Shown: positions 1-5,832 of the stretch, one piece after another | Layout: every line of letters begins with the position of its first letter | Position numbering within the stretch: position 1 is the stretch's first letter | IMG/VR virus record: IMGVR_UViG_2526164690_000036 | Direction: 5' to 3' (one strand) | Length of the DNA: 8,031 nucleotides | DNA from: a virus | Lineage: Duplodnaviria > Heunggongvirae > Uroviricota > Caudoviricetes | Made by a program: the position numbers and the translations under genes | Notes under the pieces: model-generated | The model's input: the letters and a program-made list of their open reading frames with translations, nothing else | Database searches by the model: none | What the model was told of the DNA's origin: nothing

Positions 1-409
1 AGCAACTAACTTACCTGTTGAAATTCGAACACCCAAACAACTTGTTAATATCTATTCGAAGCGAATGCAGATTGAAGAAACCTTCCGAGACTTGAAAAGT
101 CCTGCCTACGGACTAGGCCTACGCCATAGCCGAACGAGCAGCTCAGAGCGTTTTGATATCATGCTGCTAATCGCCCTGATGCTTCAACTAACATGTTGGC
201 TTGCGGGCGTTCATGCTCAGAAACAAGGTTGGGACAAGCACTTCCAGGCTAACACAGTCAGAAATCGAAACGTACTCTCAACAGTTCGCTTAGGCATGGA
301 AGTTTTGCGGCATTCTGGCTACACAATAACAAGGGAAGACTTACTCGTGGCTGCAACCCTACTAGCTCAAAATTTATTCACACATGGTTACGCTTTGGGG
401 AAATTATGA
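1..409 (+). CDS. IS10 transposase, C-terminal fragment (5' end lies upstream of window)
   Basis: The frame is open from nt 2 and translates ATNLPVEIRTPKQLVNIYSKRMQIEETFRDLKSP...GKL, matching the last ~135 aa of the 402-aa transposase at 4517-5725. Three residues differ (L/S, A/T, A/V). Confidence 0.9.
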   Translation, partial: ATNLPVEIRTPKQLVNIYSKRMQIEETFRDLKSPAYGLGLRHSRTSSSERFDIMLLIALMLQLTCWLAGVHAQKQGWDKHFQANTVRNRNVLSTVRLGMEVLRHSGYTITREDLLVAATLLAQNLFTHGYALGKL

Positions 410-422
410 GGGGATCTCTCAG
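1..422 (+). mobile_element. IS10 (IS4 family) partial copy, 5' part outside window; inside end ...GGGGATCTCTCAG at 422
   Basis: 1-422 is the reverse complement of 4504-4925 of the complete IS10 in this window, apart from six substitutions clustered in about 343-395. The terminal inverted-repeat sequence ends at 422. Confidence 0.93.
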
Positions 423-943
423 TGCTTAAGATATGCTATGTCACTGATAAAAAATTTGTTGTGTGTGTTTAGTTATTTTATCTACCTCCATTATGATTTA
501 AGACTGATATATGTTATCAGCAAAGGTACATCGTTATTATTTTACCTGTCAATACATTTGATATTGATTATCGTTTACATCGCTTGCTTAGGAAATTGAA
601 GGCAGGTAACTATCATGTCAATGAACTAACCCACAGTCTAACGTACTTCTTTCCCCAATCACCAACAACCAAATTCCTGTTATCACCACTGGGATTTTGG
701 CGCAACTTCATGGTGCAGAGGTAAATAGCATCAAGCAAAATCTCTTTTTCCGTTGTTGTCCTTATGGGACGTCTGTCTTTCTGACCGATTTCATATTGGC
801 GAGGTAATGGGAAGTTAAGTAGAATAGCTGCGGGTGCTTGAGGCTATCTGCCTCGGGCATGAACACCAACGGCAGATAGAGAAAAGCCCCAGTTAACATT
901 ACGCGTCCTGCAAGACGCTTAACATTAATCTGAGGCTCAATCT

Positions 944-1156
944 ATGAACGGCAAATCTAGGTTAGCCTCTTACGTGCCGAAAGGCAAGGAGAAGCAGGCT
1001 ATGAAGCAGCAAAAGGCGATGTTAATCGCCCTGATCGTCATCTGTTTAACCGTCATAGTGACGGCACTGGTAACGAGGAAAGACCTCTGCGAGGTACGAA
1101 TCCGAACCGGCCAGACGGAGGTCGCTGTCTTCACAGCTTACGAACCTGAGGAGTAA
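944..1156 (+). CDS. mok-like N-terminally extended reading frame overlapping hok (same frame in this locus)
   Basis: 70-aa ORF from ATG 944 whose C-terminal 51 aa are the Hok peptide. Chromosomal hok loci are annotated with a mok frame that controls hok translation. Whether it is translated here is not determinable from sequence. Confidence 0.45.
   Translation: MNGKSRLASYVPKGKEKQAMKQQKAMLIALIVICLTVIVTALVTRKDLCEVRIRTGQTEVAVFTAYEPEE
1001..1156 (+). CDS. hokD: Hok-family type I toxin (HokD/RelF-like small membrane peptide)
   Basis: 51-aa product MKQQKAMLIALIVICLTVIVTALVTRKDLCEVRIRTGQTEVAVFTAYEPEE has a single TM helix and the conserved Hok C-terminal motif (CEV.IR.G..EVA.F.AYE). It matches my recollection of E. 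coli HokD. Confidence 0.85.
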   Translation: MKQQKAMLIALIVICLTVIVTALVTRKDLCEVRIRTGQTEVAVFTAYEPEE

Positions 1157-1226
1157 GAGACCAGGCGGGGGAGAAATCCCTCGCCACCTCTGATGAATCA
1201 GGCATCCTCAACGCACCCGCACTTAA

Positions 1227-1251
1227 CCCGCTTCGGCGGGTTTTGTTTTTT
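1227..1251 (+). terminator. Rho-independent terminator downstream of hok
   Basis: Stem CCCGC (1227-1231), loop TTCG, stem GCGGG (1236-1240), followed by the T-rich run TTTTGTTTTTT. Confidence 0.6.
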
Positions 1252-1323
1252 CCTGGCATTCTGGTTTACAATTCGCACGCCAGCCTGAACAACTGGCACC
1301 TGCTGCGCCAGCAGAGACAACCG

Positions 1324-1602
1324 ATGGCGCACGATACCAAATTATACAATTCTGATGATTCTGCCGTCTTTGCCAGCAGGCGCGGACGGTGTTTTCACGC
1401 ATTCAAATCTGACTGGTACCAGCATCCCCCATGCACTGAAGAACAGGCCGAATGGCTCATTCAGTGTTACCGCAGGCGCGGATGCGAGGTTAAAAAAGCC
1501 CTTAGCCTCGACTACCGTCACTGGATAATCTCCGTCAGGCTCCCTTACTCCGAACGGCCACCGCGTCCGTCCCGCACATTCCAGCAACGGATCTGGAGGT
1601 AA
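1324..1602 (+). CDS. rem: Rem-like small prophage protein (Qin-type), function unknown
   Basis: ORF in the gene order hok-rem-ydfU known from the Qin prophage. The track ORF begins at 1243, but that overlaps the hok terminator; the first ATG after it is 1324 (MAHDTKLYNSDD...). Stop is 1600-1602. Confidence 0.55.
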   Translation: MAHDTKLYNSDDSAVFASRRGRCFHAFKSDWYQHPPCTEEQAEWLIQCYRRRGCEVKKALSLDYRHWIISVRLPYSERPPRPSRTFQQRIWR

Positions 1603-1603
1603 T

Positions 1604-3708: not shown

Positions 3709-3958
3709 AGTTCAACTGGAAATATAACGCCTGGGCTAAATCTATATATGAAGTTGGCATAGTTTTATCAGCCATAGCATTATCTTTCCATCTATGGCCA
3801 GGGTTTCACAATCCTGTAGTGCTAAATTCTGTTACTGTTGGCCCTCAAAGTACTCCCTATACAATGTATTTTAATTTTGATAAAGCGCTGGTGCCATTTT
3901 TGTTAGTCCTGTGTACATCTTCTTTGTTTAAAAAAGAAGTAAAATCAGAAGTGTCTTT

Positions 3959-4366
3959 GTGGAAGTGGGGGGCTCTGTCGCTCTCTGTTCCTCTTATCCT
4001 GTTTTTGGCTGTTTTTTTGGTGGATTAAAGCCAGAGATTCATTTTCCTGAGTGGTTGCCAGAGTTTATATTGGCTAATTTGTTTTTTGTGTCTCTGGCAG
4101 AGGAATCATTATTTAGAGGGTATATTCAATCACGGCTATCAGAAGTAACGTCTCCATTGGTTGCATTAATTGTGGCGGCTTTGTTGTTTGGTTTTTATCA
4201 CTATTCAGGTGGTGCTTTACTTGTATTATTTGCCACGTTATCTGGTGTTGTGTATGGATTGTCATGGATGTGGAGTGGGCGTTTGTGGGTTGCCACCCTT
4301 TTCCATTTTGGTTTGAATCTGTGTCACTTGTTATTCTTTACCTATCCATTTTTAAAACATAATTGA
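3959..4366 (+). CDS. CPBP/Abi-family catalytic-core ORF as it stands in this sequence (135 aa)
   Basis: Contains all three CPBP signature motifs in order and spacing: EE at about 4100-4105, FxxxH at about 4187-4201, HxxxN at about 4304-4318. Confidence 0.65.
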   Translation: MEVGGSVALCSSYPVFGCFFGGLKPEIHFPEWLPEFILANLFFVSLAEESLFRGYIQSRLSEVTSPLVALIVAALLFGFYHYSGGALLVLFATLSGVVYGLSWMWSGRLWVATLFHFGLNLCHLLFFTYPFLKHN

Positions 4367-4494
4367 TTTTTTCTATGGTTTTAAATTTATAAGACTGAAA
4401 AATAGCAGGACGTGACATTTGCATGAAAAATATGCACGGCAAAGCATTTACGTACGTAAAAAATCAGGTATGCTGTTAAGAGTGGTTATTTCGC

Positions 4495-4503
4495 CGCATA
4501 GCT
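4495..4503. repeat. 9-bp target site duplication (left), CGCATAGCT
   Basis: Identical to 5833-5841, immediately flanking the IS10 termini. Resembles the IS10 hotspot consensus NGCTNAGCN. Confidence 0.9.
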
Positions 4504-4516
4504 CTGAGAGATCCCC

Positions 4517-5725
4517 TCATAATTTCCCCAAAACGTAACCATGTGTGAATAGATTTTGAGTAAGCAGGGTTGCAGCCACGAGTGAGTCTTCCCTTGTTAT
4601 TGTGTAGCCAGAATGCCGCAAAACTTCCATGCCTAAGCGAACTGTTGAGAGTACGTTTCGATTTCTGACTGTGTTAGCCTGGAAGTGCTTGTCCCAACCT
4701 TGTTTCTGAGCATGAACGCCCGCAAGCCAACATGTTAGTTGAAGCATCAGGGCGATTAGCAGCATGATATCAAAACGCTCTGAGCTGCTCGTTCGGCTAT
4801 GGCGTAGGCCTAGTCCGTAGGCAGGACTTTTCAAGTCTCGGAAGGTTTCTTCAATCTGCATTCGCTTCGAATAGATATTAACAAGTTGTTTGGGTGTTCG
4901 AATTTCAACAGGTAAGTTAGTTGCTAGAATCCATGGCTCCTTTGCCGACGCTGAGTAGATTTTAGGTGACGGGTGGTGACAATGAGTCCGTGTCGAGCGC
5001 TGATTTTTTCGGCCTTTAGAGCGAGATTTATACAATAGAATTTGGCATGAGATTGGATTGCTTTTAGTCAGCCTCTTATAGCCTAAAGTCTTTGAGTGAC
5101 TAGATGACATATCATGTAAGTTGCTGATAGGTTTCCAGTTTTCCGCTCCTAGGTCTGCATATTGTACTTTTCCTCTTACTCGACTTAACCAGTACCAACC
5201 CAGCTTCTCAACGGATTTATACCATGGCACTTTAAAGCCAGCATCACTGACAATGAGCGGTGTGGTGTTACTCGGTAGAATGCTCGCAAGGTCGGCTAGA
5301 AATTGGTCATGAGCTTTCTTTGAACATTGCTCTGAAAGCGGGAACGCTTTCTCATAAAGAGTAACAGAACGACCGTGTAGTGCGACTGAAGCTCGCAATA
5401 CCATAAGCCGTTTTTGCTCACGGATATCAGACCAGTCAACAAGTACAATGGGCATCGTATTGCCCGAACAGATAAAGCTAGCATGCCAACGGTATACAGC
5501 GAGTCGCTCTTTGTGGAGGTGACGATTACCTAACAATCGGTCGATTCGTTTGATGTTATGTTTTGTTCTCGCTTTGGTTGGCAGGTTACGGCCAAGTTCG
5601 GTAAGAGTGAGAGTTTTACAGTCAAGTAAGGCGTGGCAAGCCAACGTTAAGCTGTTGAGTCGTTTTAAGTGTAATTCGGGGCAGAATTGGTAAAGAGAGT
5701 CGTGTAAAATATCGAGTTCGCACAT
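4517..5725 (-). CDS. IS10 transposase (402 aa, IS4 family, DDE)
   Basis: Full-length ORF MCELDILHDSLYQFCPELHLKRLNSLTLACHALLDCKTLTLTELGRNLPTKARTKHNIKRIDRLL... recognised as the IS10/Tn10 transposase. Confidence 0.95.
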   Translation of the reverse strand: MCELDILHDSLYQFCPELHLKRLNSLTLACHALLDCKTLTLTELGRNLPTKARTKHNIKRIDRLLGNRHLHKERLAVYRWHASFICSGNTMPIVLVDWSDIREQKRLMVLRASVALHGRSVTLYEKAFPLSEQCSKKAHDQFLADLASILPSNTTPLIVSDAGFKVPWYKSVEKLGWYWLSRVRGKVQYADLGAENWKPISNLHDMSSSHSKTLGYKRLTKSNPISCQILLYKSRSKGRKNQRSTRTHCHHPSPKIYSASAKEPWILATNLPVEIRTPKQLVNIYSKRMQIEETFRDLKSPAYGLGLRHSRTSSSERFDIMLLIALMLQLTCWLAGVHAQKQGWDKHFQANTVRNRNVLSTVRLGMEVLRHSGYTITREDSLVAATLLTQNLFTHGYVLGKL

Positions 5726-5786
5726 TTTGTTGTCTGATTATTGATTTTTGGCGAAACCATTTGATCATATGACAAGATGTGTATCT
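5718..5786 (+). ncRNA. Expected position of the IS10 antisense RNA-OUT (pOUT transcript), approximate coordinates
   Basis: Placed from established IS10 biology (RNA-OUT of ~69 nt starts just inside the transposase start and runs toward the outside end). The 5' and 3' ends were not determined from the sequence itself. Confidence 0.4.
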
Positions 5787-5832
5787 ACCTTAACTTAATG
5801 ATTTTGATAAAAATCATTAGGGGATTCATCAG

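Follow-up and report, generated by a model that had tools for sequence, protein, structure and literature searches.

The two inverted IS10 copies that bracket a 4.1-kb segment of lambdoid prophage in the DNA analysed here (the window, 8,031 nucleotides at its full length) most probably reflect two independent, sequential simple insertions into the prophage of an E. coli strain of O111:H11 type. A copy of the IS10-Left allele would have entered first, at a site downstream of the CPBP gene, an event common to two sister strains; a copy of the IS10-Right allele would later have inserted 4.1 kb upstream, with the hok region on one side and a divergent alpha/beta-hydrolase gene on the other, and this second insertion would be private to the present genome. 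Both insertions would have occurred by cut-and-paste, the source of both alleles would be a resident Tn10 of a lineage whose IS10 complement has grown to roughly 45–55 copies, and the Tn10-like arrangement with inside ends inward would be a by-product of IS10 density.

Structure and Identity of the IS10 Copies

A repeat search of the window returned an inverted repeat with arms at 1–426 and 4500–4925 (98% complementarity); the four bases past the IS ends match only in part, and the true IS ends lie at 422 and 4504. The left copy (1–422, plus strand) is cut by the window edge and comprises the last 422 bp of the element (IS10 positions 908–1329), namely the C-terminus of the transposase (stop codon at 407–409) and the inside end, which carries GATC at 413–416 and terminates at 422 with …GGGGATCTCTCAG. 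The right copy (4504–5832, minus strand) is complete at 1329 bp, with the characteristic IS10 outside end at 5832 and inside end at 4504, the latter beginning CTGAGAGATCCCC; its intact 402-aa DDE transposase ORF (4517–5725, minus strand) is read from the outside toward the inside end and matches DDE_Tnp_1 in Pfam (PF01609, E = 1.5e-24). The transposase 3′ ends and the inside ends face inward in both copies, and the Tn10-like inverted geometry that had been reported in an initial annotation of this DNA is borne out by the repeat search and by pairwise alignment.

The same annotation had described the copies as distinct alleles with six differences and three amino-acid changes. Alignment yielded exactly six mismatches (window positions 342, 361, 364, 365, 374, and 393), and three residues at the transposase C-terminus differ between the copies (L/S381, A/T389, and A/V398), as described. 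The comparison with reference IS10-Left and IS10-Right that it had proposed, made here with Tn10 of plasmid R100, showed each copy to be 100% identical to one Tn10 arm. The left copy, whose allele call covers the visible 422 bp (beyond the window lie its first 907 bp, with the promoter and the bulk of the gene, as well as its outside end and far flank), has 0 differences from the tetD-side IS10 (IS10-Right) and 6 mismatches to the jemA/gltS-side copy; the right copy has 0 differences from the jemA/gltS-side IS10 (IS10-Left) over 1329 of 1329 bases. In Tn10 the gene order runs jemA…tetD, IS10-right (PMC5571418).

The Enclosed Prophage Segment

The copies enclose 4081 bp of a lambdoid prophage nin/Q segment (423–4503, plus strand), as judged from the RefSeq annotation of an identical locus (L001), Pfam and lambdoid phage relatives. 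RefSeq annotation of the identical sister locus and Pfam identify hokD (1001–1156), a DUF968 (ydfU-like) gene (1604–2653), RusA (2666–3037), the Q antiterminator (3027–3398), and a CPBP/Rce1-like gene (3550–4366), which is frameshifted and split here, two T8 runs (after window positions 3691 and 4011) having each lost 1 bp. The earlier reading of the segment as hok-rem-ydfU-rusA-Q-CPBP stands for every gene except rem: the 92-aa ORF at 1324–1602 has no Pfam match, the Rem family included. A search for the 4.1-kb segment elsewhere, also proposed in the initial annotation, covered 5426 complete E. coli genomes, 72,556 plasmids, and 50,697 phages; wherever it occurred, the module sat in its native lambdoid-prophage or phage context, never between IS10 copies, and in many IS-free genomes it is contiguous with both of its flanks.

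Insertion Sites and Sister Strains

The right copy is flanked by a perfect 9-bp direct repeat of CGCATAGCT (4495–4503 and 5833–5841), in keeping with the IS10 target duplication of 9 bp resembling NGCTNAGCN. In many genomes this site is empty and the 9-mer occurs once, as in locus L002. The duplication had gone unmentioned in the initial annotation. Just outside the right copy lies a terminator-like hairpin with a T-run (5846–5868, plus strand), which is native prophage sequence and also present in the IS-free locus L002. At the left copy, the 9 bp adjoining the inside end, TGCTTAAGA (423–431), constitute a candidate target duplication if that copy is a simple insertion. Both junction 9-mers are similar to the IS10 target consensus GCTNAGC: the right core, GCATAGC, has 1 mismatch (0.4% of host 7-mers are equally good) and the left core, GCTTAAG, has 2 (3.4% equally good).

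Two O111:H11 strains from cattle, 88.0502 and 88-19539, carry the right IS10 at the same site and lack the left copy. Neither has any substitution relative to window positions 423–8031, right IS10 included, and the two 1-bp T8 deletions are the sole differences between the window and the sister genome. Left of 423 both strains read on into the hydrolase gene without an intervening IS10, the sister genome running …CATTAAAGGA|TGCTTAAGATATG… uninterrupted across the left-copy site; many other genomes have neither IS10 copy. The sequence …CATTAAAGGATGCTTAAGA is on the hydrolase side of this prophage, and a simple insertion would be expected to leave it beyond the left copy's outside end.

The left junction itself was not found in complete E. 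coli genomes, its exact 43-mer was absent from the genome contigs and metagenome contigs searched, and no record was found for the 71-aa ORF that spans it. In contigs recovered through DUF968 and HokD, what lay to the left was always the hydrolase gene; searches with frameshift-specific CPBP fragments yielded at most noisy short contigs that were IS-free. Nothing relevant was found in the literature on ISVsa5/IS10.

Allele-specific 40-mers detected ~37 IS10R-type and ~6 IS10L-type ends in 88.0502 (total ~43) and at least 39 IS10R-type and ~14 IS10L-type ends in 88-19539 (total at least 53), these counts being matches at the inside end and not full elements; each strain also has one chromosomal tet(B) match. 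With dozens of IS10 ends of both alleles in the sister strains, a close pair is unsurprising: 45–55 randomly placed copies would give 1.4–2.1 neighbouring pairs within 4.1 kb, with 0.35–0.53 expected in the geometry seen here.

Origin of the Pair

For two sequential insertions, both alleles have precedent as single elements: K-12 laboratory strains are documented to contain solo IS10L and IS10R that were shed from Tn10 (PMC11148124). Reports describe the IS10-Left transposase as inactive (PMC11148124; PMC5571418), so the IS10-Left-allele copy would have needed transposase in trans or residual activity to move; either is plausible given ~40 IS10-Right-type copies. We infer that the left copy is complete, with its own duplication and the hydrolase gene on its far side.

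Two routes by way of an intact Tn10 were considered and rejected. If a whole Tn10 had entered at the right site and then undergone deletion, no member of the duplication could adjoin an inside end, as one does here. By the established Tn10 mechanism, inversion promoted by the inside ends should yield directly oriented IS10 copies, and the copies here are inverted.

The left junction could instead be a rearrangement, either an adjacent deletion or inversion promoted by IS10 or Tn10 through an inside end or homologous recombination among IS10 copies, in which case the DNA left of the left IS10 would not be the original prophage flank and there would be no matching 9-bp duplication. The lineage offers many substrates, with its dozens of IS10 copies and its Tn10, the element is evidently active since its number differs between the two sister strains, and the left flank lies beyond the window; nevertheless we consider this unlikely, because over ~51 kb left of the site the sister genome is free of any IS10 that might serve as a nearby end donor, the 9-mer at 423–431 resembles a normal IS10 target, and simple insertion is by far the commonest IS10 outcome. 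That the junction is an artefact of long-read assembly in an IS10-rich genome appears very unlikely: differences confined to 1-bp homopolymer deletions are typical of unpolished long-read assemblies, and the source assembly is outside the RefSeq complete-genome set, but the break coincides exactly with the final base of the IS10 inside end and adjoins a consensus-like target 9-mer, the left copy is cleanly IS10-Right in allele, unlike its IS10-Left neighbour, and long reads easily span a 1.3-kb repeat.

The initial annotation had further suggested that the pair could in principle move the enclosed module as a composite element. In favour of a true composite transposon, one by which the hok-DUF968-rusA-Q-CPBP module arrived as a single unit or was moved afterwards, are the geometry (two inverted copies with outside ends outermost bracketing a passenger, the completeness of the left copy being assumed, and one arm of the IS10-Right allele) and the occurrence elsewhere of IS10 pairs that have captured ~4 kb of DNA between them, the 4,328-bp fosA10 region being one example (PMC10352792). 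Against it, a single 9-bp duplication would surround such a unit as a whole, whereas the right arm has a duplication of its own together with an empty site (the left outer flank being beyond the window); the sister strains hold the right copy alone; and the IS-passenger-IS unit occurs at no second location among the genomes, plasmids and phages searched, the module always lying in a prophage context and usually being free of IS10. This reading has next to no probability, and a composite origin is already refuted. A matching duplication at the left copy and an exclusively prophage context for the segment had been named at the outset as findings that would argue for two independent insertions; most of this was borne out: across the collections searched the segment lay only in a prophage or phage context, and a separate duplication surrounds the right copy, the one at the left copy being a candidate.

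Independent insertion would nonetheless leave the pair as an accidental potential composite, in which a 6.7-kb unit could move through its two outside ends. The earlier view of the pair as a substrate for inversion or deletion needs qualification: homologous recombination between the inverted copies could invert the module, whereas deletion could follow from transposase-mediated events at the inside ends and not from inverted-repeat recombination. Movement of the 6.7-kb composite, inversion of the module and its deletion were all unobserved. It is extremely unlikely that the pair already works as a new composite, with the IS10-Right-allele arm supplying transposase and the outside ends carrying hok-DUF968-rusA-Q to new replicons, or as an invertible cassette; were the latter true, recombination between the arms would flip the Q antiterminator module and uncouple it from the late genes, an on/off switch for prophage induction.

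Relation to Known Elements and Significance

In Tn10 itself (IS10-Left, jemABC-tetRACD, IS10-Right; plasmid R100) the same two alleles, base for base, are likewise inverted, with the outside ends outermost and the inside ends facing each other. Here, however, native prophage DNA (4.1 kb) takes the place of the tet/jem genes as passenger, no transposition as a unit is documented, and a target duplication surrounds one arm individually, which points to a structure assembled in place by two insertions. The solo IS10-Left and IS10-Right elements of K-12 DH10B, JM109, and XL1-Blue (PMC11148124) are similar in being single 1329-bp copies of either allele dispersed from a resident Tn10, but the present lineage is a natural one of bovine O111:H11 type with, judging by its sister strains, far more copies. 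The fosA10 region shares an IS10 pair around ~4 kb of foreign or chromosomal DNA; units of that kind are on plasmids, away from their chromosomal origin, and hence have moved, whereas the module described here is still in its prophage.

Judged on their sequences, both elements are already known, being Tn10 arms base for base with a textbook mechanism, and the case is an ordinary one; the pair in itself is of little weight. The bovine O111:H11 sister strains provide a more notable side result, a large expansion of IS10 that involves both alleles. Under two sequential insertions, the locus would offer a clear example of a composite-transposon-like structure arising in place from two separate IS insertions under heavy IS load, in which geometry alone is no evidence of a mobile unit.

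Inverted IS10 Pair and Its Alleles

A repeat search detects an inverted repeat in the window with arms at 1–426 and 4500–4925 (98% complementarity); sequence reading and alignment of the arms put the actual element boundaries at 422 (…GGGGATCTCTCAG) and 4504 (CTGAGAGATCCCC…), with exactly six mismatches between the arms in pairwise alignment (window positions 342, 361, 364, 365, 374, and 393). Both elements are IS10. The right copy (4504–5832, 1329 bp, minus strand) is complete, exhibits all tested defining features of IS10, and carries an intact ORF (4517–5725, minus strand) for a 402-aa DDE transposase (PF01609); the left copy (1–422, plus strand) is cut by the window edge, leaving IS10 positions 908–1329 visible. 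With both transposase genes reading inward, the inside ends point at one another and the outside ends form the outer limits of the pair, the arrangement known from Tn10. The repeat search, arm alignment, and transposase directions bear out the inverted pair described in the initial annotation.

The pair resembles Tn10 in its alleles as well as its geometry. Searched against the plasmid collection, the right copy matches one of the IS10 copies of plasmid R100 at 100% identity across all 1329 bp. For allele typing, both window copies and both IS10 arms of the R100 Tn10 were aligned: the right copy is base-for-base identical to the IS10 on the jemA/gltS side (IS10-Left), and the partial left copy shows 0 mismatches to the IS10 on the tetD side (IS10-Right) and 6 to IS10-Left. 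The tetD-side copy carries the RNA-IN sequence canonical for IS10-Right. The R100 arms differ at 15 positions (24, 25, 27, 47, 83, 107, 410, 425, 903, 1249, 1268, 1271, 1272, 1281, and 1300), resulting in four amino-acid changes (I266V, S381L, T389A, and V398A). The two copies are indeed distinct alleles, the right being IS10-Left and the left, over its 422 bp, IS10-Right; the six differences and three amino-acid changes first noticed between them are therefore merely the inside-end share of known IS10-Left versus IS10-Right divergence.

The Enclosed Prophage Segment

The 4081-bp module between the copies (423–4503) is a normal lambdoid nin/Q region encoding HokD, a 92-aa protein, DUF968, RusA, the Q antiterminator, and a CPBP/Rce1-like protein, a gene content given by both Pfam and the RefSeq annotation of the identical locus in a sister strain. 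The 92-aa ORF (1324–1602, between hokD and DUF968) is a hypothetical protein in RefSeq and has no Pfam match, PF27490 (Rem) included, leaving its earlier designation as rem unconfirmed; a true Rem is present at the equivalent position in other hok loci. Many lambdoid and Stx phages contain stretches related to the module. The sole full-length match in the plasmid collection is an EDL933 record labelled "plasmid," in which the module has the same prophage neighbors (replication genes, hydrolase, AraC-like gene, and esterase) and no IS10. Among E. coli genomes and the plasmid and phage collections, no second instance of the module flanked by IS10 was found, in a non-prophage setting or otherwise.

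The CPBP/Rce1-like gene (3550–4366) is split into three ORFs by two T-runs (3685–3698 and 4005–4018, after 3691 and 4011) that are each T7 in the window versus T8 in the sister genome, with no substitutions in 7.6 kb. These differences are probably homopolymer sequencing error, because the frameshift fragments recur in noisy short contigs (the 135-aa fragment, and in two contigs the 52-aa fragment too).

Probable Independent Insertion of the Two Copies

The 9 bp preceding the inside end of the right copy (4495–4503) are repeated past its outside end (5833–5841) as CGCATAGCT. Contiguous matches to 423–4503 plus 5833–8031 are found in many complete E. coli genomes, and the empty site of an IS-free genome reads …TTCGC CGCATAGCT TGACCCCGCC…, with the 9-mer once only. 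Tn10-type composite insertion is expected to leave a duplication outside both outside ends. Here, the right arm has a duplication of its own, and since one duplicate adjoins its inside end, this arm inserted by itself. The IS10 target consensus is reportedly GCTNAGC (Halling and Kleckner 1982); the right-copy core, GCATAGC, has 1 mismatch, equaled by 0.4% of host 7-mers of the window. A terminator-like hairpin (5846–5868; CCCGCCTCTGAGCGGG then TTTTTT) lies 5 bp past the right target duplication. The right IS10 thereby sits just upstream of a seemingly native terminator after the CPBP gene. Its outside end faces the hairpin (5846–5861), a frameshifted TrmB-like ORF (5991–6230), an AraC-like gene (6325–7038), and a three-tRNA cluster (7067–7316; CAT anticodon, tRNA-Ile in RefSeq, Arg-TCG, and Arg-TCT). 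This layout resembles a Stx-phage late region; no stx gene is present.

Among 5426 complete E. coli genomes, coverage of the window reaches ≥80% in only two, those of the bovine O111:H11 strains 88.0502 (NZ_CP077567.1) and 88-19539 (NZ_CP077491.1). Both match 423–8031 with zero substitutions and two 1-bp indels, and in both the right IS10 occupies the identical position. Left of position 423, both continue as uninterrupted prophage (…CATTAAAGGA|TGCTTAAGATATG…), an alpha/beta-hydrolase gene starting 26 bp from the equivalent position. IS10 is absent from the 422/423-equivalent site in both strains and from ~51 kb to its left in 88.0502, and the 422/423 junction is absent from all 5426 genomes. 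Because the sister strains have the right IS10 only, the IS10-Left-allele insertion is older and shared, and the IS10-Right-allele copy belongs to the window's genome alone. About 18 kb leftward in 88.0502, another lambdoid prophage, which is truncated, sits in tandem (NZ_CP077567.1 3333604–3337269; 33605–37270 of L029, the stretch extracted from that genome); its paralogous module of hok, DUF968, rusA, antiterminator, and tRNA genes is a further recombination substrate.

IS10 transposes by non-replicative cut-and-paste with 9-bp duplications; active transposase comes from IS10-Right, that of IS10-Left being reported inactive or weak (PMC5006887; PMC11148124). Mobilization of the IS10-Left-allele copy was probably due to transposase acting in trans from the numerous IS10-Right-type copies, or to residual activity. 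For the left copy, insertion of a complete IS10-Right-type element with duplication of TGCTTAAGA is most likely; the core of this target has 2 mismatches to the consensus (equally good in 3.4% of host 7-mers). If complete, the left copy would direct its outside end, along with its outward promoter pOUT, toward the hydrolase gene. It is unlikely that a rearrangement produced the left junction. Misassembly, suggested solely by the two CPBP homopolymer differences, is highly improbable, as the junction falls exactly at an IS end, the target there is consensus-like, and the allele of the left copy is clean.

IS10 Load of the Lineage

Alleles were counted with queries in which a 54-bp anchor found at the right junction alone was joined to a 40-mer specific for one allele, counts being inside-end matches; the 40-mer holds five of the six differences, so megablast does not seed on the other allele. 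Strain 88.0502 has ~37 IS10-Right-type and ~6 IS10-Left-type inside ends (~43 together), 88-19539 has at least 39 and ~14 (at least 53), and each has one chromosomal tet(B). These counts and tet(B) matches indicate a lineage with Tn10 or a remnant and great IS10 expansion, and the unequal copy number indicates that IS10 is still moving. The expansion is very large for natural isolates. Random placement of 45–55 copies in 5.76 Mb predicts 1.4–2.1 neighboring pairs within 4.1 kb, 0.35–0.53 of them with inside-ends-inward geometry; the pair requires no special explanation.

Across the 5426 genomes, matches to the IS10-Left-type query number 1999, spread over 601 genomes; the IS10-Right-type query has 3036 in 793 genomes and the tet(B) query 950, each total including a few shared-anchor matches. 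Many solo IS10-Left-type copies thus exist, despite a transposase described as inactive. IS10 is de-repressed without Dam methylation, which fits the at least 40 IS10 pieces among the matches listed for the dam-negative laboratory strain ET12567 (NZ_CP045457.1).

Potential Mobility of the Pair

The proposal that the pair could mediate inversion, deletion, or composite mobility holds in principle: the pair could transpose as a 6.7-kb unit via its two outside ends, homologous recombination could invert the Q module, and inside-end events could lead to module loss. Two defining features set the pair apart from a composite transposon: where one duplication around the whole unit is expected, the right arm has its own, and no IS10-module-IS10 unit was found at other loci. 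The pair is comparable to the solo IS10-Left and IS10-Right copies known in Tn10-bearing K-12 strains (PMC11148124) and to known IS10 pairs around captured ~4-kb segments, such as fosA10 (PMC10352792); it is real but ordinary, and its biology is already known.
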